Sequence record: MN850564.1 | DNA: 64,000 bases | DNA from: Escherichia phage humlepung | Reading direction: 5' to 3' (one strand) | Shown: positions 7,896-15,380 of the stretch, one piece after another | Layout of the letters: each line of letters opens with the position of its first letter | How positions within the stretch are numbered: the first letter of the stretch is position 1 | Translations under genes and position numbers: made by a program | The notes under the pieces: model-generated | Databases searched by the model: none | Told to the model about the DNA's origin: nothing | What the model saw: only the letters and a program-made list of their open reading frames with translations

Positions 7896-8122
7896 TTTTC
7901 AGTTCTCCTGCGATTTATAATTTTGCTGCAATAGAGAAACGAAGTAAACTCACTGGAAGAAACTACTAAGTGTTGTTCACTAGATTGAGCCATTGCCCTG
8001 AAATACATTCCAGTCAAAGCATCATAGTGACTATTCTTTCCAATTGAGGTTATATAGCCATGACTCTTTGCAGTTTGATATAAATCTATAATATCTGCGA
8101 TTTCTAATTGGGAACTACACAT
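7889..8122 (-). CDS. hypothetical protein (77 aa)
   Basis: ORF. Confidence 0.35.
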   Translation of the reverse strand: MCSSQLEIADIIDLYQTAKSHGYITSIGKNSHYDALTGMYFRAMAQSSEQHLVVSSSEFTSFLYCSKIINRRRTEKC

Positions 8123-8364
8123 AGATAATCCTCTTGTCTTCTGTAATTTTGAAAGAACAGGTACAGACCAATTTCAGAGGATGAATAGTAGAGTAACTCT
8201 ACCCTTTTTGATTCCTTACAGTGATTGGTATTTTTACCTTTCTTCGGGTTGTTTGATTTTCTCATTAAGTCTCCTTTGTAGAACAAGGCAGACCTACAGC
8301 TTTAAGTAAGATGGTACAGTAATCCATACAACAAGTCAAGAACTATTGCAAGTTAAAAAAGTTG

Positions 8365-8967: not shown

Positions 8968-10383
8968 ATGAGCGAATTATTTAAACATGCGCACCTTCAT
9001 GCAGGTCGAACTGAAAATGGTGCTGTAAACCATACTTCATCAATGTCTGCTCTTGTAGACTTTTACAAAGCTGCTGGTTCGAGCCGTAGCAATGTAGAAA
9101 TCTTACCAGACCTGTTCTACAAAGCTTTGCGTGAGGATGTTGATGTTGCAGTTCGTATTTTACTGCATATGCGAGATGTACGAGAAGGTATGGGTGAGCG
9201 TAAAGCTTTCCGAACTGTTTTACTTAAAGCAATTGAAGATAAGATTTTAGAACCTACACAGGTTCTTCGCATTATGGATAAGATTGCAGAACTTGGTCGT
9301 TTTGATGACTTCAAAATCTTCGTAGGTACTCGTTTTGAGACAGATGCCTTCAAACATTTAGAAGCAGCATTACTAGACCCTGCAACAGCAGGTTTGGCGG
9401 CTAAGTGGTTACCACGAGTCAAACCACGTCATAAGCAGTTTGTAAAACGTTTCTGCAAGTTTGCCAACTTGAGTGAGAAAGAGTACCGCACACTGTTGTC
9501 TGCACTATCTGATACAGTTGAGCAAAAAATCTCTGCTAATGAGTTTGGTAAGATTGACTACAGTAAGATTCCTTCACTTGCTGCTGCACGTTACCAAAAA
9601 CTGTTTAACCGTAAAGATGGAGAGCGTTACAAAGCTTACATCGAGTCCTTATCAAAAGGTGAGACTAAGATTAACGCTGGTGCTGTTTACCCATACGATG
9701 TGATTAAATCTGTCAAGTATGGTAATGCAGATGTTGCTAATGAGCAGTGGAAAGCACTACCAAACTGGATGGCAGAAGGTGAAAACATCTTGTGTATGTC
9801 TGATGTATCAAGTTCAATGTCTTGGGTGAATTTTGGCTCCATTACTGCTCTGGATATTGGTGTATCACTTGCCTTGTATGTAGCAGAACGCAATACAGGT
9901 TGCTTTAAGAATGAGTTAATGGTTTATTCAACAAACCCTCACTTCATCGAACTGAGTGGTGATTTACGAAACCGTCATCGTCAGGTGATGCGACACGTTG
10001 AATATGGCTCAACTAACTTACAAGCAGCTTTTGACCGCATTCTTGAAACAGGTAAAAGAAACAACTTGACTCAGAAAGATATGCCAAGTAAGCTTATCAT
10101 CTTCTCCGATATGGAGTTCAATCAGGTTGATGGAGCTAACGGTCGTACAAACTTTGAAGCAATTCAGAGTAAGTACAAAAAAGCTGGATATGAGATGCCA
10201 CAACTGGTATTCTGGTACTTAGCAAACCGTAATGGTACTTGCGAAGTATCTGTTAAGGATAACGGTGTAGCAATGGTATCAGGGTTCTCTCCAGCCACTT
10301 TAAAAGCTCTGCTTGGTGGTGAGAAGTTTGACCCAATCAGTGTAATGCTCAAAGCAGTAATGATTGACCGTTATATCTGGTAA
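8968..10383 (+). CDS. Ro60/TROVE-like protein with C-terminal von Willebrand factor A domain (DUF2828-like N-terminus by recollection)
   Basis: MIDAS-like DVSSSMS...T...IIFSDMEFN resembling Ro60 vWA (DVSASM / FTDCETN); N-terminal TENGA...S..ALVDFY motif. Confidence 0.6.
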   Translation: MSELFKHAHLHAGRTENGAVNHTSSMSALVDFYKAAGSSRSNVEILPDLFYKALREDVDVAVRILLHMRDVREGMGERKAFRTVLLKAIEDKILEPTQVLRIMDKIAELGRFDDFKIFVGTRFETDAFKHLEAALLDPATAGLAAKWLPRVKPRHKQFVKRFCKFANLSEKEYRTLLSALSDTVEQKISANEFGKIDYSKIPSLAAARYQKLFNRKDGERYKAYIESLSKGETKINAGAVYPYDVIKSVKYGNADVANEQWKALPNWMAEGENILCMSDVSSSMSWVNFGSITALDIGVSLALYVAERNTGCFKNELMVYSTNPHFIELSGDLRNRHRQVMRHVEYGSTNLQAAFDRILETGKRNNLTQKDMPSKLIIFSDMEFNQVDGANGRTNFEAIQSKYKKAGYEMPQLVFWYLANRNGTCEVSVKDNGVAMVSGFSPATLKALLGGEKFDPISVMLKAVMIDRYIW

Positions 10384-10548: not shown

Positions 10549-10625
10549 CTCTGTTTAGCTCAGCTTGGTAGAGCGTTCCGTTTGGGGCGGTAAGGCCGGA
10601 GGTTCAAGTCCTCCAACAGAGACCA
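10549..10625 (+). tRNA. tRNA-Pro (anticodon TGG)
   Basis: 7-bp acceptor ctctgtt/aacagag, D-arm gctc/gagc, T-loop TTCAAGT, encoded CCA. Confidence 0.75.
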
Positions 10626-10632
10626 AATTAAT

Positions 10633-10710
10633 GTTCCAGTAGACAAAATGGTAAAGTCACCACTCTTTCAAAGTGGATATTTGAGGGTTCAAATCCCTTC
10701 TGGAACGCCA
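10633..10710 (+). tRNA. tRNA-Glu (anticodon TTC)
   Basis: Acceptor gttccag/ctggaac, anticodon loop cTTTCaa, T-loop TTCAAAT, CCA. Confidence 0.7.
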
Positions 10711-10715
10711 GTTTT

Positions 10716-10791
10716 GACAGAAGACCAATTACAGCAAACTTAATCTTATTCATCTGAAGGTAAATCGGACAAAGAAGAGATTTGGTCTGGT
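10716..10791 (+). repeat. Structured repeat element copy a (5' GACAGAAGACCA ... 3' TGGTCTGGTC)
   Basis: Member of four-copy family with conserved CAGAAGACC...TACAGCAA...GGTCTGG and covarying flanks. Confidence 0.5.
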
Positions 10792-10801
10792 CATTAAGAA
10801 T

Positions 10802-10878
10802 TGCGGGTATAGAGAAAGGGCGTCTCACATGTCTCATTAGCATGGTATCGGCAGGTTCGACTCCTGCACCCGCCTCCA
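10802..10878 (+). tRNA. tRNA with CAT anticodon (Met or Ile2)
   Basis: Anticodon stem catgt/gcatg, loop cTCATta, T-loop TTCGACT, CCA; 1:72 mismatch. Confidence 0.6.
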
Positions 10879-10882
10879 ATTT

Positions 10883-10946
10883 TGCAGAAGACCGTATTCA
10901 GCAACAAAATACTTTTTGCGGATAAAAGAAAAAACACGGTCTGGCA
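10883..10946 (+). repeat. Structured repeat element copy b (5' TGCAGAAGACCGT ... 3' ACGGTCTGGCA)
   Basis: Same family; flank covariation tGC/GCa. Confidence 0.5.
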
Positions 10947-10955
10947 ATGTATTAA

Positions 10956-11029
10956 GGTTAGGAAGCACATAAGGTATGTGCGGTCGCCTGTTAAGCGAAT
11001 GGCACAGGGTTCGAATCCCTGACTAACCG
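10956..11029 (+). tRNA. tRNA-Asn (anticodon GTT)
   Basis: Anticodon loop ctGTTaa, T-arm caggg-TTCGAAT-ccctg, acceptor 6/7 paired; no encoded CCA. Confidence 0.65.
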
Positions 11030-11040
11030 CAAAATTAAAT

Positions 11041-11128
11041 GTGTCGTTATCCCGTAGATGGTAGCGGTGGGGACTGTAAATCCCTTGTCATTGAGACTCG
11101 GTAGGTTCGACTCCTACACGGCACACCA
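11041..11128 (+). tRNA. tRNA-Tyr (anticodon GTA), type II with long variable arm
   Basis: 85 nt, acceptor gtgtcgt/acggcac, loop ctGTAaa, T-loop TTCGACT, CCA. Confidence 0.7.
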
Positions 11129-11133
11129 ATAAA

Positions 11134-11210
11134 GGCTATGTAGTTTAACTGGAGAAAATACTCCCCTGTCACGGGAGATGATGTGAGTTCAAGTCTCATC
11201 GTAGCCGCCA
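11134..11210 (+). tRNA. tRNA-Asp (anticodon GTC)
   Basis: Acceptor ggctatg/cgtagcc, loop ctGTCac, T-loop TTCAAGT, CCA. Confidence 0.7.
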
Positions 11211-11237
11211 ATTTTGAGAGGGCTATTTAGCCCCTCC

Positions 11238-11272
11238 CTTAAAGAGTTCTTACGAGTATTCTTTAAGGGAGC
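11238..11272 (+). repeat. Hairpin CCCTTAAAG-(agTTCTTACGAGtatt)-CTTTAAGGG
   Basis: 9-bp perfect stem; loop motif TTCTTACGAG recurs at 14277-14286. Confidence 0.5.
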
Positions 11273-11348
11273 AGAAGACCAAATACAGCAAGAATGTATG
11301 AAATTTCAAGCCAATTTAATTTTGAAAATTTAAAACTTGGTCTGGCTC
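11269..11348 (+). repeat. Structured repeat element copy c (5' GAGCAGAAGACCAA ... 3' TTGGTCTGGCTC)
   Basis: Same family; flank covariation GAGC/GCTC. Confidence 0.5.
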
Positions 11349-11354
11349 AACAAA

Positions 11355-11493
11355 TTTACAGAAGGCCGTTTACAGCAAAACTTAAACAATCTATTTCTCC
11401 GGTAAAGAAAAGGCGAAGGTTCGATTCCTTCACTCGGCAGATGTCGAGTTGGTGTAATGGTAGCACTTAAGATGATAAACAACGGTCTGGTAA
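11355..11493 (+). ncRNA. Candidate structured ncRNA (element copy d): terminal stem TTACAGAAGGCCGTT/AACGGTCTGGTAA enclosing tRNA-like T-arm and D-arm hairpins
   Basis: Internal gaagg-TTCGATT-ccttc hairpin with T-loop consensus, acceptor-like hairpin, D-arm-like gtgtAATGGTAgcac; no complete tRNA fold. Confidence 0.3.
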
Positions 11494-11639
11494 TTACCTT
11501 TGTAGATAAGTTATTAAGCTTACTTGTGAGTATGCGACCACAAAGGGTGAATGGGTAAATTCTAGATTTAAACCCAAAAAGGCACATCGCTACAGACCTT
11601 AAGCAAGTCTGGGTAGCTTATCTACAAAGATAATTTAAT

Positions 11640-11715
11640 GGAAGTGTAGCAGAATGGTGATGCGGCAGACTTTTAATCTGACAGGCGATGGGTTCGAATC
11701 CCTCCACTTCTACCA
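11640..11715 (+). tRNA. tRNA-Lys (anticodon TTT)
   Basis: Acceptor ggaagtg/cacttct, loop cTTTTaa, T-loop TTCGAAT, CCA. Confidence 0.65.
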
Positions 11716-11719
11716 ATAT

Positions 11720-11796
11720 GGTTCAGTCGCAGATAAGGTAATGCAAGGGTCTCATAAGCCCTATGAATGTGGGTTCGATTCCCATCTGAACCTCCA
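11720..11796 (+). tRNA. tRNA with CAT anticodon (Met or Ile2), second copy
   Basis: Perfect acceptor ggttcag/ctgaacc, loop cTCATaa, T-arm gtggg-TTCGATT-cccat, CCA. Confidence 0.65.
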
Positions 11797-11797
11797 A

Positions 11798-11873
11798 GCT
11801 GGTATAGTTAAGAAGGTTATAACACTCCCCTGATAAGGGAACATCGGTGGTTCGATTCCACCTACCAGTACCA
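11798..11873 (+). tRNA. tRNA-Ile (anticodon GAT)
   Basis: Loop ctGATaa, T-arm ggtgg-TTCGATT-ccacc, CCA. Confidence 0.65.
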
Positions 11874-11888
11874 ATTTCAATAAAGTTG

Positions 11889-11917
11889 TTGACATTGAGA
11901 TGTGACTACTTTATAGT
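11889..11917 (+). promoter_or_regulatory. Sigma70-like promoter TTGACA-17-TATAGT inside the tRNA region
   Basis: Exact -35, 17-nt spacer, TATAGT -10. Confidence 0.55.
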
Positions 11918-12121
11918 AACCTTAGTTTTCGTTGCGTAGCGTCTATTTTGCAAATTTAAAATAAATGCAAACGACAATGTTTTTCTGGCAGTAGCTTGAT
12001 AGGCTAAACACCAGTGAGGTCTTCCAATCCCTCATCAAAGAATTTGGCGTACTCGCCCACGGTATGATTAATAAGGTGGGCATCTTTAAGGGCTTTCTAA
12101 GAGAGTCTTTAAAGATAATTA

Positions 12122-12203
12122 CGGGGCGTATCTCAGCGGTCTTCTAAACCGCCGTTAACCGAGTAAGTGGAGTATGCGGGTTCGAGTCCTGCCGCCTCGA
12201 CCA
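12122..12203 (+). tRNA. Atypical tRNA-like gene, anticodon stem-loop gcggt-cTTCTaa-accgc (TCT, Arg-like), no recognisable D-arm, 23-nt extra segment
   Basis: 7-bp acceptor cggggcg/cgcctcg, T-arm gcggg-TTCGAGT-cctgc, CCA; only 7 nt between acceptor and anticodon stem. Confidence 0.4.
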
Positions 12204-12346
12204 ATTTAGTTAGCAGATTACTTAGACGACCTTAGCGGGTCTTCCTGTAGGGAGGTGGTCTGTATCTCATGTTTTCCAGAACATGTAAATAATCTGAGAA
12301 GGGGCTTTACAGTGTTGAGATAATACGGTAAGCTTCGAATTATAGT

Positions 12347-12429
12347 ATGGGACGATATTAAGACTCTAAGGCATGAGCAACGGCTTCCAACACCGTTTCA
12401 AAGGGGTTCAACTCCTCCGTCCCATGCCA
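12347..12429 (+). tRNA. Atypical tRNA-like gene, anticodon loop compatible with CCA (Trp) closed by a C-A pair, or 9-nt loop
   Basis: Perfect acceptor atgggac/gtcccat plus CCA, T-loop TTCAACT; D-region irregular. Confidence 0.35.
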
Positions 12430-12442
12430 AAGTCTTATTAGG

Positions 12443-12530
12443 GGTAGGTAGCGGCTAATGGTAGCCAAACTGTCTTGAAAACAGTTGCCACTGTAGAGAT
12501 ACGGTGAGGGTTCGACTCCTTTACTTACCG
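12443..12530 (+). tRNA. tRNA-Ser (anticodon TGA), type II
   Basis: 88 nt, stem actgt/acagt with loop cTTGAaa, long variable arm, T-loop TTCGACT. Confidence 0.65.
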
Positions 12531-12787
12531 CCTAATAAGATTTAAAGCCAAGCTTCATTCGGATGTTGCTTTGGTATACCGCGTGTATTGTTGTACGCAC
12601 TGATAAAGCACCTAGTAGGTGTCACGGAGAAGAGATAATATCAAGCTCTCCAAAGGTTCTAGTCACCGGATTAAACAAGACTATGCAAAGACCTTTTTAG
12701 GTCTTTTTAGAGGGCTTCTAAGGTTATTACAGCTTGTTGTGGAACCTTGTTGCTTAGGTTCTTAGAAGTTCTCTAAAAAGATTTAAT

Positions 12788-12865
12788 GGGAGATTGACGG
12801 TAATTGGTAAACCTACCATCCTTAGAAGTTGGTGTTTGAGGGTTCGAATCCCTTGTCTCCTACCA
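12788..12865 (+). tRNA. tRNA with TAG anticodon (Leu-type anticodon but short, type-I length)
   Basis: Acceptor gggagat/gtctcct with G-U pairs, loop ctTAGaa, T-arm gaggg-TTCGAAT-ccctt, CCA. Confidence 0.5.
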
Positions 12866-12872
12866 AATTAAT

Positions 12873-12948
12873 GCAGGTGTAGCAAAATGGTTATGCGGCT
12901 GACTCTTAATCAGTAAGACGATGGGTTCAATTCCCTCCACCTGTACCA
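12873..12948 (+). tRNA. tRNA-Lys (anticodon CTT)
   Basis: Stem gctga/tcagt, loop ctCTTaa, T-loop TTCAATT, CCA. Confidence 0.55.
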
Positions 12949-12954
12949 GACATT

Positions 12955-13030
12955 GGGGTCATAGTTTATATGGTTAAAATTCGAGTTTTGCAAACTTGGG
13001 AACTGAGTTCAATTCTCAGTGACTCCACCA
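12955..13030 (+). tRNA. tRNA-Ala (anticodon TGC)
   Basis: G3:U70 wobble pair in acceptor (Ala identity element), loop ttTGCaa, T-arm ctgag-TTCAATT-ctcag, CCA. Confidence 0.75.
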
Positions 13031-13036
13031 ATTAGT

Positions 13037-13111
13037 GCATCCATAGTTTAAACGGGAAAATTACAGTCTTCCAAACTGAGGTTGAGGGTTCGATTCCCTC
13101 TGGATGCTCCA
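13037..13111 (+). tRNA. tRNA-Gly (anticodon TCC)
   Basis: Perfect acceptor gcatcca/tggatgc, loop ctTCCaa, T-arm gaggg-TTCGATT-ccctc, CCA. Confidence 0.7.
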
Positions 13112-13117
13112 AACAAT

Positions 13118-13194
13118 GCTGCTTTCGTATAATTGGCTATTACACATCCCTTGTAAGGATGGAAATGCAGGTTCGAGTCCTGTGAGCAGCACCA
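13118..13194 (+). tRNA. tRNA-Thr (anticodon TGT)
   Basis: Perfect anticodon stem catcc/ggatg, loop ctTGTaa, T-loop TTCGAGT, CCA. Confidence 0.75.
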
Positions 13195-13199
13195 ATTCA

Positions 13200-13283
13200 G
13201 AGGTCAAGTGAAAGACCGCTGGTGTCAACTGAAGACCGTAACAAATTCCACGGAGTTGAGTTAGCGGCACAACTTCAGACCTC
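13200..13283 (+). repeat. Stem element AGAGGTC...GACCTCT enclosing a GAAGACCGTAAC motif
   Basis: 7-bp terminal inverted repeat; internal CTGAAGACCGTAACAAA resembles the 5' arm of elements a-d. Confidence 0.4.
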
Positions 13284-13289
13284 TTTCAC

Positions 13290-13364
13290 ACTCGCTTAGT
13301 TTATATGGTAAAACACCACCCTTACAAGATGAAGAAAAAGGTTCAAGTCCTTTAGTGAGTACCA
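13290..13364 (+). tRNA. tRNA-Val (anticodon TAC), tentative isotype
   Basis: Acceptor actcgct/agtgagt, loop cTTACaa, perfect T-arm aaagg-TTCAAGT-ccttt, CCA; anticodon stem has mismatches. Confidence 0.55.
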
Positions 13365-13365
13365 T

Positions 13366-13443
13366 GTTCCAGTATCCCAATTGGCAGAGGATGCAAGCTC
13401 AAACCTTGTATTAGTGACGGTTCGAATCCGTCTTGGAACACCA
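13366..13443 (+). tRNA. tRNA with CAA anticodon (Leu-type anticodon, type-I length)
   Basis: Acceptor gttccag/ttggaac, stem gcaag/cttgt, loop ctCAAac, T-arm gacgg-TTCGAAT-ccgtc, CCA. Confidence 0.55.
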
Positions 13444-13462
13444 ATTTAAAGAGGCTATTTAG

Positions 13463-14020
13463 ATGAGATATTTGAAGTATGCTTCATGGATTTTCCTAGC
13501 TTTACTAGAGCCATTTGCAGCAACCCTAGCAGTCATCTTAGCACCTTTCGTAGTTCCATTCTACAGTGAGAAGAAAGGACACTTACCTTTCGGGTTCAGA
13601 TGGATGGAGACATATGACAACCCAATTGATGGTGATGAAGGTCACGTTAAAAGATGGGCTAATATTAGATGGATTGGTAAACTAGGTGTCTACATGCAAA
13701 GAGTTGGATGGCTCTGGAGAAACAAAGCTTATAACTTCTCTTACCATGTATTAGGAAGAGATGTAAAAGATGTTACTAAGTGGAAAGGTAATATCAACGT
13801 AAGTTCTAACCCTGAAGATAATCAGACTGGTTATCTCCTAATGTGGAACAGGAATGCTTGGGGATTATTCGCTTTTATCCCATCAATTAAAATCTTTGGT
13901 AAACAATTTTACTGGAGAATTTATATTGGATGGAAACTAAAAAGTGTTGTCCCAGAAGAAAGAGCATTCTCAAGGGAAAGAGTTATGTTGGCATTCTTTA
14001 TTCATCCACTGAGAAAGTAA
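13463..14020 (+). CDS. hypothetical membrane protein (185 aa, Trp-rich) encoded inside the tRNA array
   Basis: ATG with AAAGAGG RBS; N-terminal hydrophobic segment. Confidence 0.55.
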   Translation: MRYLKYASWIFLALLEPFAATLAVILAPFVVPFYSEKKGHLPFGFRWMETYDNPIDGDEGHVKRWANIRWIGKLGVYMQRVGWLWRNKAYNFSYHVLGRDVKDVTKWKGNINVSSNPEDNQTGYLLMWNRNAWGLFAFIPSIKIFGKQFYWRIYIGWKLKSVVPEERAFSRERVMLAFFIHPLRK

Positions 14021-14028
14021 AGATTTAA

Positions 14029-14104
14029 AGGGGATTAGTTTACAAGGTTAAAACCTCGGTCTTTGAAATCGAAGAAGTTGGTTCAATTCCAACATCCCCC
14101 GCCA
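14029..14104 (+). tRNA. tRNA-Gln (anticodon TTG)
   Basis: Loop ctTTGaa, perfect T-arm gttgg-TTCAATT-ccaac, CCA; 1:72 mismatch. Confidence 0.6.
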
Positions 14105-14106
14105 AT

Positions 14107-14185
14107 GCTCCATTACTCCAATTGGCAGAGAGGCCAGACTTAAAATCTGTGTTATGTATCGGTTCGAATCCGATATGGAGTACCA
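14107..14185 (+). tRNA. tRNA with TAA anticodon (Leu-type anticodon, type-I length)
   Basis: Loop cTTAAaa, T-arm atcgg-TTCGAAT-ccgat, CCA; D-arm resembles the CAA tRNA. Confidence 0.5.
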
Positions 14186-14190
14186 AATTT

Positions 14191-14266
14191 AGCGGTATAG
14201 CATAACTGGCAATGCAGCAGTCTCTGAAGCTGTCTTATTAAGGTTCAAATCCTTATGCCGCTGCCA
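14191..14266 (+). tRNA. tRNA-Gln (anticodon CTG), tentative
   Basis: Acceptor agcggta/tgccgct, D-stem gcat/atgc, loop ctCTGaa, T-arm taagg-TTCAAAT-cctta, CCA. Confidence 0.55.
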
Positions 14267-14267
14267 C

Positions 14268-14294
14268 TTCTAAGGATTCTTACGAGAGTCCTTA
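14268..14294 (+). repeat. Hairpin with loop motif TTCTTACGAG (second copy)
   Basis: aaggaTTCTTACGAGagtcctt; motif shared with 11250-11259. Confidence 0.45.
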
Positions 14295-14297
14295 AAT

Positions 14298-14373
14298 GTG
14301 GCCTTATCATAAATGGTAATGACCCATGCTGTGAACATGGTCTATACGGGTTCAAATCCCGTAGGTCACCCCA
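14298..14373 (+). tRNA. tRNA-His (anticodon GTG)
   Basis: Perfect anticodon stem ccatg/catgg, loop ctGTGaa, T-arm acggg-TTCAAAT-cccgt, CCA. Confidence 0.7.
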
Positions 14374-14379
14374 ATTTAT

Positions 14380-14455
14380 AGTCCAAGTAGCTTATATGGT
14401 TAAAGCGCGTGTCTGAAAAACATGAGAAGAGGGTTCAAATCCCACTGGACTACCA
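14380..14455 (+). tRNA. tRNA-Phe (anticodon GAA)
   Basis: D-stem gctt/aagc, loop ctGAAaa, T-loop TTCAAAT, CCA; acceptor register uncertain by 1 nt. Confidence 0.6.
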
Positions 14456-14471
14456 ATTTCAAAGGTGCTTA

Positions 14472-15206
14472 ATGAAAGAGATGACAGAACAAGGTAAGGA
14501 GATTTTTAATCTCTTAAAAACCGGTAAAGGGTTTTCTAACCCACTTATTACTGGTGCAGCAGTTCTCGGTGGAACCGTAGCTGCCTCTACATCACTTGTA
14601 AGCTCTATTAGCTCTGTAACAGACCCTACAATGAAGGAGAAGCTTGTTGCTGCTGGACTTACAACAGTCCTTCTAAACAGCTTTACAACAATCCTGACAA
14701 GCACTACAGCAACCACTAAGACCCTAACAGACTACGGTCAAAAGTCTATTGATGAGTTTTCATCACGTATGCAGGTAGCAAAGGGATATTCCAATGTTAT
14801 GGGTGCAGCAGGAGAACAAGTTGGTTGTACACCATTCAGTGGTATTATGGGTGTTGCTACAGAGTATGGTCAAAAAGCTATTGACATGATTAACAGTACA
14901 CTAGATAGTGTTAATGGTGTGTTAAGTGACTTACAAGACGCTATTGATGAGGGTCTTGATACTGTTTCTGATTTAGCTAATCAGGCTGTTAGTAAGATTA
15001 ATGAAGGTATTTCAAAGATTACAGCTTATGCAGATGAAGTTGTGCAGATGATTGAAGAAGAAGCTGCCCTTATTGCAGAGTACCTTAAAACGAATATCAA
15101 TGGGTTCTTAGCAGGTATCTTACCAGACTGGTTTGATGATGCTTGTAAAACTGGTGTAATTGATGCTATTGCAACACCAGAAATGAAGAACGCATTACAG
15201 AAATAA
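14472..15206 (+). CDS. hypothetical protein (244 aa, Ala/Thr/Ser-rich)
   Basis: ATG at 14472 with AAAGG RBS; the track start at 14409 would overlap tRNA-Phe. Confidence 0.5.
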   Translation: MKEMTEQGKEIFNLLKTGKGFSNPLITGAAVLGGTVAASTSLVSSISSVTDPTMKEKLVAAGLTTVLLNSFTTILTSTTATTKTLTDYGQKSIDEFSSRMQVAKGYSNVMGAAGEQVGCTPFSGIMGVATEYGQKAIDMINSTLDSVNGVLSDLQDAIDEGLDTVSDLANQAVSKINEGISKITAYADEVVQMIEEEAALIAEYLKTNINGFLAGILPDWFDDACKTGVIDAIATPEMKNALQK

Positions 15207-15207
15207 T

Positions 15208-15300
15208 GGAAGATTAACCCTAAAAGGTAAGGGAGCAGTTTGCTAAACTGCCAGTAGCTGAGAAATCGGTGTACCAGTTCAAGTCTGGTATCTTCCTCCA
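15208..15300 (+). tRNA. tRNA-Ser (anticodon GCT), type II
   Basis: Perfect acceptor ggaagat/atcttcc, stem gcagt/actgc, loop ttGCTaa, long variable arm, CCA. Confidence 0.7.
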
Positions 15301-15304
15301 ATTT

Positions 15305-15380
15305 GAATCCGTGACAGAAATGGCTATGTGCCTGTCTGCAAAACAGGTTTATAAGGGTTCGAGTCCCTTCGGATTCTCCA
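15305..15380 (+). tRNA. tRNA-Cys (anticodon GCA)
   Basis: Perfect acceptor gaatccg/cggattc, stem cctgt/acagg, loop ctGCAaa, T-arm aaggg-TTCGAGT-ccctt, CCA. Confidence 0.75.

Follow-up and report, generated by a model that had tools for sequence, protein, structure and literature searches.

What is encoded in a 255-nt spacer of a phage tRNA array in which most genes lie just 2–10 nt apart? The spacer, at positions 12533–12787 (+ strand), separates tRNA-Ser(tga) on its 5′ side from tRNA-Leu(tag) on its 3′ side in Escherichia phage humlepung (sequence record MN850564.1), of which we analyzed a stretch of 64,000 nucleotides, hereafter “the window.” ARAGORN places 24 tRNA genes on the + strand of the window, from 10549 to 15380. 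A preliminary description, drawn from the letters of the sequence, had singled out the gap between the two genes as containing hairpins but no tRNA or open reading frame (ORF), and had proposed that an untranslated gap of this length probably has an RNA function; all features that it claimed were found where it had placed them or within a few bases. We found that the core of the spacer is conserved, that its predicted stems change in ways that preserve pairing, and that neither a tRNA nor a conserved ORF accounts for the conservation. These observations agree with the proposed function at the RNA level and, because of them, strong and uneven purifying selection on the gap as RNA is supported. 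The reading that we favor, with modest confidence, is that Felix O1-like phages encode in this gap a structured non-coding RNA module that is functional.

The window derives from a Felix O1-like phage of the genus Felixounavirus, and the 1.5-kb stretch around the element matches 265 phage records at 80–99% identity, mostly Escherichia, Salmonella, and Shigella phages; those fetched belong to Felixounavirus, Mooglevirus, or Suspvirus (subfamily Ounavirinae). The element itself occurs in 253 phage records, all from these three genera bar two with apparently mislabeled organism names, and in two metagenomic phage contigs (L042 and L044) whose neighboring gene retains just 64% DNA identity. Throughout, it lies between tRNA-Ser(tga) and tRNA-Leu(tag). 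As a neutral yardstick we used the 4-fold degenerate sites of the neighboring Ro-like gene, where identity to the window amounts to 66–71% in Mooglevirus and 43–48% in L042/L044. The core of the element (12601–12687), by comparison, displayed a mean identity of 95% and a minimum of 92% over eight distant relatives (Mooglevirus/Suspvirus), and only 8–11 differences in 87 nt in L042/L044 (binomial P about 3e-14), i.e., it stays 87–97% identical in relatives whose neighboring gene is near saturation at the 4-fold sites. Other parts of the element vary far more: identity to the distant relatives is 51% in the first hairpin (H1), 44% in the loop of the sixth (H6), and 45% at the apex of the seventh (H7), with insertions and deletions in all three.

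Upon folding the spacer, we obtained a series of seven hairpins (H1–H7, Table 1) on which RNAalifold and single-sequence folds agreed. The module displays three layers: first a 5′ hairpin free in sequence, then four hairpins forming an invariant core, and finally a long hairpin at the 3′ end whose loop is invariant. Every one of the unrelated versions of H1 folds as a hairpin of 25–35 nt. The H6 stem extends to AAAGACC/GGUCUUU (12687–12706), its U's continuing to 12708; the stem is fixed, while the loop (12694–12699) is free in both sequence and length. Within H6 lies the short hairpin AGACC-UUUUUA-GGUCU at 12689–12704 that the preliminary description had pointed out. The H7 stem runs unbulged in the window from C12703-G12780 through G12722-C12761 and spans 16–19 bp in relatives, and the paired blocks noted earlier (TTTAGAG/CTTCTAAG) turned out to be the two arms of a single long inverted repeat (12697–12722 with 12761–12786; 26 nt, 85% complementary). 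The fold of the whole gap reached −72.9 kcal/mol versus −57.9 ± 4.6 kcal/mol for dinucleotide shuffles (z −3.3), and H7 alone reached a z of −6.5, with 0 of 200 shuffles folding equally well.

We derived pairing statistics from an alignment of 28 sequences, using as controls the 3′ partners slid by 1–3 columns and 500 shuffles. Standard pairs were found in 98.9% of the pair cells, compared to 36–52% in the slid controls, and the covariation score was 0.114 versus at most 0.033. Changes on both sides occurred at six pairs, of which five lie in H7 and one, U-A to C-G, in H5; this number was reached by 0 of the 500 shuffles. Many pairs are G-U or switch among G-U, A-U, and G-C; because G-U pairs correspond to A-C mismatches on the minus strand, the constraint acts on the + strand transcript. 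Since the core varies little, its fold rests mainly on single changes that preserve pairing plus one compensatory pair.

Table 1. Features of the spacer and of its surroundings (positions in the window).
Feature	Position	Strand	Remarks
471-aa Ro60-fold protein	8968–10383	+	Pfam DUF2828 + DUF7788; PHROG 850 “RNA-binding protein”
Y-RNA-like paralogous modules M1–M4	~10715–10793, 10882–10947, 11269–11348, 11358–11491	+	between tRNAs
sigma-70-type promoter TTGACA-17-TATAGT	11889–11917	+	11/12 matches, best of the region; nearest upstream on the same strand
tRNA-Ser(tga), 5′ boundary	12443–12532	+	ARAGORN
A/U-rich linker UAAUAAGAUUUAAA	12533–12546	+	nearly invariant; AAGAUUUAA in it recurs at the 3′ end (12778–12786)
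H1	12547–12575	+	fold kept, sequence free; at least six unrelated sequence versions among relatives
H2, 6-bp hairpin GUGUAU/GUACGC	12583–12598	+	substitutions solely U-A to U-G and A-U to G-U
Invariant core H3–H6	12601–12706	+	loops and linkers as conserved as stems, except the H6 loop
H3	12608–12622	+	core hairpin
H4	12626–12651	+	core hairpin
H5	12660–12683	+	core hairpin
H6	12687–12706	+	core hairpin
48-aa GTG ORF	12619–12765	+	annotated “hypothetical protein” (AYO145A_049, bas63_0145); judged no gene
H7, long hairpin	12703–12780	+	~20 consecutive basal pairs and an apical sub-hairpin
UUGUUGCU, octamer in the H7 apical region	12747–12754	+	invariant in 28/28 aligned sequences
AUUUAAU leader	12781–12787	+	directly 5′ of tRNA-Leu
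tRNA-Leu(tag), 3′ boundary	12788–12865	+	ARAGORN; Rfam tRNA model 40 bits; first tRNA of the sub-cluster Leu-Lys-Ala-Gly-Thr

Known kinds of RNA did not account for the gap. We rejected a tRNA, an intron-containing tRNA, and a transfer-messenger RNA (tmRNA), as both ARAGORN and Rfam were negative in the gap, and the tRNA model (RF00005) found no match in 12520–12800 even at E ≤ 10 with permissive filters, so the gap is free of tRNAs as first described; weak matches of the tmRNA model lie at 11815–12120, outside it. The Rfam/Infernal scan that had been proposed as a check returned no family for the gap. A known Rfam family was rejected likewise: only plant and animal microRNA-precursor models matched H7, weakly (best 32.7 bits versus a gathering score of 52), because it is a long hairpin and not by homology. 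The models of the phage-associated RNAs ROOL (RF03087) and GOLLD (RF01998) had no match in the window at gathering score or at E ≤ 10. In the literature searched we found no non-coding RNA described at this spacer, and no RNA sequencing of Felixounavirus.

The element appears to be confined to its phage lineage. No match was found in 5,426 E. coli genomes, and a 26-mer of the core had no exact match among 185,579 GTDB prokaryotic species genomes (one per species); on these searches we rejected a host-derived or mimic sequence. We then scanned with a covariance model built from the 28 element versions (R1), with filters on for all loci and filters off for four loci of the Yersinia phage P778 group only. 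Neither R1 nor blastn found a homologue in the P778 group, which is syntenic and has a Ro-like protein 53–57% identical, or beside the Ro-like (DUF2828) genes of Klebsiella, Cronobacter, Vibrio, Mycobacterium, Campylobacter, and Listeria phages, and R1 had no match in the T4 tRNA cluster (L038). A possible second copy in the window, scored by R1 at 28 bits (E about 1e-5) at 1–168, is one arm of a palindrome and was treated as a probable long-hairpin artifact. That palindrome is perfect, with 68-nt arms at 1–68 and 133–200, is cut by the window start, and is followed by repeated CTTGTTA(A/G) motifs (100–420); in phage Bas63 the region lies in a 1.66-kb stretch without annotated gene. An origin, or some other element acting at the DNA level, is conceivable here.

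The surroundings of the spacer suggest how such an RNA might be produced. The promoter reported at 11889 is indeed present as the top sigma-70 match of the region. Its hexamers and spacing are identical to those of promoter P45 of Felix O1 (PMC3185647), and by this sequence match the two are probably the same promoter. Downstream of it, the + strand has no other promoter-like site before 13900, bar a weak one at 12315. Because the gap contains neither a promoter nor a convincing terminator, we infer that the element is transcribed from the + strand within a polycistronic tRNA precursor, which would probably start at the 11889 promoter. The host tRNA-processing machinery would then release it: Its 3′ end would come from RNase P, cutting at 12787/12788 where tRNA-Leu begins, while its 5′ end would be defined by the 3′ processing of tRNA-Ser, through an endonucleolytic cut in the A/U-rich linker, and RNase III might also cut the 20-bp H7 stem. 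This putative route is drawn by analogy with the species 1 and 2 RNAs of phage T4 (rnaC and rnaD). Once freed, the element may persist as a structured RNA in which H1 would act as a protective 5′ cap or insulator, the ~105-nt core H3–H6 as the working part, most likely a sequence-specific platform binding a particular protein or RNA partner, and H7 with its invariant UUGUUGCU as a processing or stability signal.

Several observations weigh against the reading as a functional RNA module. The folding energy of the core is unexceptional (z −0.8), and the invariant core gives nearly no covariation of its own, with the one compensatory pair in H5. The P778-group relatives keep the tRNA array without the element, which is thus lineage-specific and dispensable for the array as such, and the tRNA genes of Bas63 scored as mostly non-essential on laboratory hosts (10.1101/2024.10.10.617714). 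Last, hairpins like H7 recur before tRNA sub-clusters, so that the element, in part or in whole, could be confined to acting in cis. A long hairpin at 11492–11635 (+), directly before tRNA-Lys(ttt), is paralogous to H7 and has a ~22-bp stem, a z of −5.0, and strong covariation between genera. The two have the base sequence CUUUGUAGAU/AUCUACAAAGAU(A)AUUUAAU in common, and the base of the 11492–11635 hairpin (CUUUGUAGAU ... AUCUACAAAGAUAAUUUAAU followed by G) is nearly identical to that of H7 in L042/L044 and Mooglevirus. A shorter related hairpin at 12084–12118 (+), before a tRNA-Arg-like gene, also has its base sequence in common with H7. Both of these other hairpins end in AAAGAU(A)AUU(U)A(A)U just before the tRNA and are candidate RNase III or processing signals. 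Near-perfect long hairpins ending in AAAGAU(A)AUUUAAU hence recur immediately 5′ of tRNA sub-clusters, and the unique part of the element is accordingly H1 to H6.

Could the spacer then be a purely cis-acting part of the tRNA precursor, its hairpins serving as processing or stability signals without any stable trans-acting RNA? H7 would in that case offer an RNase III site, and the signals would further include barriers to RNase E or exonucleases and the correct presentation of tRNA-Leu to RNase P. The base, position, and ending of H7 fit this idea, as does H1, conserved as a fold only. An RNase III substrate needs a duplex of ~20 bp, and the H7 stem, with around 20 bp or about two turns of mostly uninterrupted double-stranded RNA, has that length; in the T4 tRNA cluster, RNase III processing occurs upstream of the first tRNA. 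The RNase III processing hairpins of T7 early mRNA, of rRNA operon spacers, and of the T4 tRNA precursor resemble H7, whose ~20-bp stem stands immediately before the first tRNA of a sub-cluster and whose paralogue stands before another, so that H7 may by analogy be a putative cleavage site. Unlike them, however, H7 carries the invariant apical UUGUUGCU, which is superfluous for a simple cleavage site, and the likeness leaves the invariant core unexplained. The ~105 nt of near-invariant sequence, loops and linkers included, are unneeded for processing hairpins, most tRNAs of the array follow one another without such signals, and distant relatives that lack the element still mature these tRNAs; we therefore judge an exclusively cis-acting spacer to be rather unlikely. 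We rate as very unlikely an independent small RNA of the Hfq type that would end at an intrinsic terminator formed by H6 and its U-run, with H7 as a separate downstream element. In Felixounavirus, H6 is indeed followed by five U's, and its stem is conserved while its loop varies; the preliminary description had called 12688–12706 terminator-like. Yet that part of the description did not hold up: The stem has 5–7 weak pairs, only three of them G-C, and is absent from the consensus terminator scan, and in L042/L044 the U-run reads UUUG, its G pairing with a C that replaces an A in the 3′ arm of H7. Since H7 itself compensates the change, it is as a strand of the H7 basal helix, and not as a terminator tail, that the U's are conserved. 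A terminator here would also leave the next seven tRNAs without a promoter, as the promoter scan found none downstream of H6 to drive them, and transcription would instead read through H6. The remaining possibility is that the selection acts on a small protein, encoded by the 48-aa ORF or just by the conserved 25 aa at its N terminus, or on a DNA-level site for protein binding or recombination. That no ORF of 60 aa or more lies in the gap was correct, the longest being of 48 aa and 45 aa (12563–12700). The former is annotated in AYO145A and Bas63, its first ~25 codons are intact in most relatives, and TTGTT-containing repeats occur also in the non-coding region 100–400. Its frame, however, is shortened to 19–29 aa in 11 of 31 distinct versions, through 1-nt insertions or deletions or a stop, and is broken within the first 26 codons in Bas63, L025, and ESh22; all substitutions in the shared part are non-synonymous, with no synonymous change, and the GTG start is buried in the H3 stem, lacks a Shine-Dalgarno sequence, and opens a product with no Pfam match. 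The annotated ORF is thus judged no gene, leaving the gap covered by no predicted tRNA or credible ORF, and the compensatory and G-U-preserving changes favor a single-stranded + strand RNA over duplex DNA, so that a protein gene or a DNA site seems barely credible to us.

A further candidate function is suggested by the protein encoded upstream. The 471-aa protein shares 33% identity with proteins of mycobacteriophages that carry the annotation “Ro-like RNA binding protein,” and its AlphaFold (AF2) model (pLDDT, the predicted local distance difference test, 89; pTM, the predicted template modeling score, 0.88) had Ro60/TROVE structures as all of its 11 best PDB matches (E 1e-7 to 3e-6, TM-scores up to 0.67), from Thermus phage phiLo, Xenopus, human, and Deinococcus Ro60. 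Ro-like homologues occur in 709 phage records and stand beside tRNA genes in Klebsiella, Cronobacter, Campylobacter, and Listeria phages. In agreement with this fold, the PhageMaP preprint (10.1101/2024.10.10.617714) describes the Bas63 orthologue gp130 as resembling Ro60 and as countering the ppl defense, and proposes, as a guess, that some “tRNA genes” of the array are Y RNAs. The element could thus be a Y-RNA-type partner or regulator of the Ro60-like protein (8968–10383) that binds through the H6 helix AAGACC/GGUCUU, although we regard this as improbable. In its favor, Chen et al. 2014 (PMC4201824) expect a Y RNA on the strand of the Ro60 orthologue and no more than about 4 kb from it; from the end of the Ro60-fold gene (10383) to the first base of the element (12533) the distance is 2.1 kb, with the element downstream on the same strand and, like Y RNAs (YrlA, RF02553; partner Ro60/Rsr), next to tRNA-like RNAs. 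H6 moreover has AAGACC/GGUCU in common with the bulged terminal stems of M1–M3 (AAGGCC in M4). The structure of the element, however, differs from that of a Y RNA: It has no terminal stem formed by its 5′ and 3′ ends, the predicted end-to-end pairing amounting to six invariant A-U/G-U pairs; H7 is a local hairpin; the length of 255 nt is about twice the 80–130 nt of Y RNAs; the gap lacks the Ro60 site (GNCGAAN0-1G, or GGUCCGA with a bulge), neither GNCGAA nor GGUCCGA being present, as well as T and D arms; and the YrlA model (RF02553) has no match there at E ≤ 10. Relatives whose Ro-like protein is 53–57% identical keep that gene and a YrlA-like RNA without the element, and gp130 on its own, in the absence of any added phage RNA, rescues T7 from the ppl defense (10.1101/2024.10.10.617714).

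Better Y-RNA candidates sit elsewhere in the array. The four modules M1–M4 all possess a terminal stem with a bulge (NNNC-AGA-AGRCCNN ... NNGGUCU-G-GNNN), in which the outer helix and the inner helix covary from copy to copy; each also contains the motif ACAGCAA (UCAGCAA in M2 of the window). M4, which contains GGCGAAGG, combines a T arm (11415–11431), a closed acceptor-like hairpin (11432–11449), and a D arm, arranged in the permuted order known from YrlA, and shows compensatory changes at 12 of 27 predicted pairs across relatives, including two P778-group contigs (L043 and L046) in which the YrlA-like RNA lies directly before tRNA-Leu(tag). While the Rfam YrlA model does not detect M1–M4, these modules, rather than the element at 12533–12787, are likely the Y RNAs. 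Five nucleotides of the UUGUUGCU loop are complementary to the ACAGCAA motif that all four modules conserve; a kissing interaction between the H7 loop and M2 was kept as no more than speculation, its 8-nt complementarity (AGCAACAA) being specific to the lineage of the window and conserved over only 5 nt. In Cronobacter phage S13 (L036:7896-8016 and 8026-8138) and Klebsiella phage FBKp34 (L035:8003-8116), we observed over-long “tRNAs” of 111–121 nt directly downstream of the DUF2828 Ro-like gene, which match the whole tRNA model with an insertion of ~40 nt and could be intron-containing tRNAs or tRNA-like partner RNAs.

The array around the element held further observations. Two non-canonical tRNA-like sequences on the + strand escape ARAGORN: one at 12122–12200, with a TCT anticodon loop, a long extra region, and an Rfam tRNA score of 31.7 bits, annotated tRNA-Arg in Bas63 and only 46% conserved relative to Mooglevirus/Suspvirus, and a second one at 12350–12432 (GGGACGA...UCGUCCCAUGCCA), whose acceptor stem, T-arm-like hairpin, and CCA end are present but whose D region is aberrant. 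At the 3′ boundary, four loci (L018, L020, L028, and L031, e.g., L031:3177-3642) have an HNH endonuclease gene inserted between H7 and tRNA-Leu; the gene starts just past a copy of the first 11 nt of tRNA-Leu (GGGAGATTGAC; window 12788–12798), which serves as its ribosome-binding site. In seven others (L007, L011, L014, L017, L026, L042, and L044), tRNA-Leu(tag) is swapped for a different tRNA sequence with the same anticodon (GCACCTATAGCC...), and both versions appear, as judged by eye, to lack the long variable arm typical of bacterial tRNA-Leu. Other spacers of the array (13195–13289, 11211–11270, and 11925–12083, + strand) are as conserved as the tRNAs, with 85–92% identity to Mooglevirus/Suspvirus and ~90–100% in their best-conserved parts, and fold well; the first (z −3.0) contains CUGAAGACCGU, the second forms two strong hairpins (z −4.6), and all three are candidates for further non-coding RNAs.

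Felix O1-like phages are widely used in the typing and biocontrol of Salmonella and E. coli, and their tRNA region is currently annotated as tRNAs and spurious small ORFs. At least this 255-nt “gap” is instead a selected RNA element, and with its recognition an erroneous protein annotation (AYO145A_049, bas63_0145, and the like) can be dropped. The neighborhood of tRNAs, four Y-RNA-like RNAs, and a Ro60-fold protein points to RNA metabolism or anti-defense, and together with the element it suggests that the array is an RNA-metabolism module and not a simple codon-supply locus. Going further, the element might be the founding member of a new class of phage RNAs that work with the Ro60-like protein and the Y-RNA-like RNAs, as scaffold, decoy, or quality-control substrate acting through the core and the UUGUUGCU loop, so that the tRNA pool of the phage is protected or matured in the face of RNA-targeting host defenses; we consider this broader proposal a long shot. 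Since Bas63 carries the element, at 84032–84285 of its record, and has a knockout platform, the element is a genetically tractable candidate with which to ask what non-tRNA RNAs do in phage tRNA clusters, a question that, to our knowledge, has gone unanswered ever since the first description of the T4 species 1 and 2 RNAs.

Among known systems, these T4 RNAs are the closest, by position and not by sequence. Like the element, rnaC and rnaD are small structured non-tRNA RNAs in a phage tRNA cluster, co-oriented with the tRNA genes and abutting them, and we know of no function assigned to them to date. They are annotated as small stable RNAs, and their stability and processing are documented for T4, whereas those of the element are proposed by analogy. 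Homology to rnaC/rnaD was not found in our comparison, which returned merely chance matches of 7–13 nt to tRNA T loops, and rnaC has a tRNA-like T arm (CCGGGUUCGAAUCCCGG), whereas the element has no tRNA-like feature. ROOL and GOLLD are likewise structured RNAs of phages and prophages with no assigned function that tend to adjoin tRNA genes, but they differ in architecture and size: The element has ~250 nt, compared to ~580 nt for ROOL (574 model positions) and ~800 nt for GOLLD. In Listeria phage LP-048 (L041:1427-1978), we observed a ROOL-like RNA (90 bits versus a gathering score of 99.1, E 3e-17) between tRNA genes, ~1 kb upstream of the DUF2828 Ro-like gene and with an RtcB-like ligase gene 1.3 kb downstream. 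Overall, the element of the Felix O1-like phages represents a new family of RNA whose general kind is known, namely the structured non-tRNA RNAs within phage tRNA clusters.

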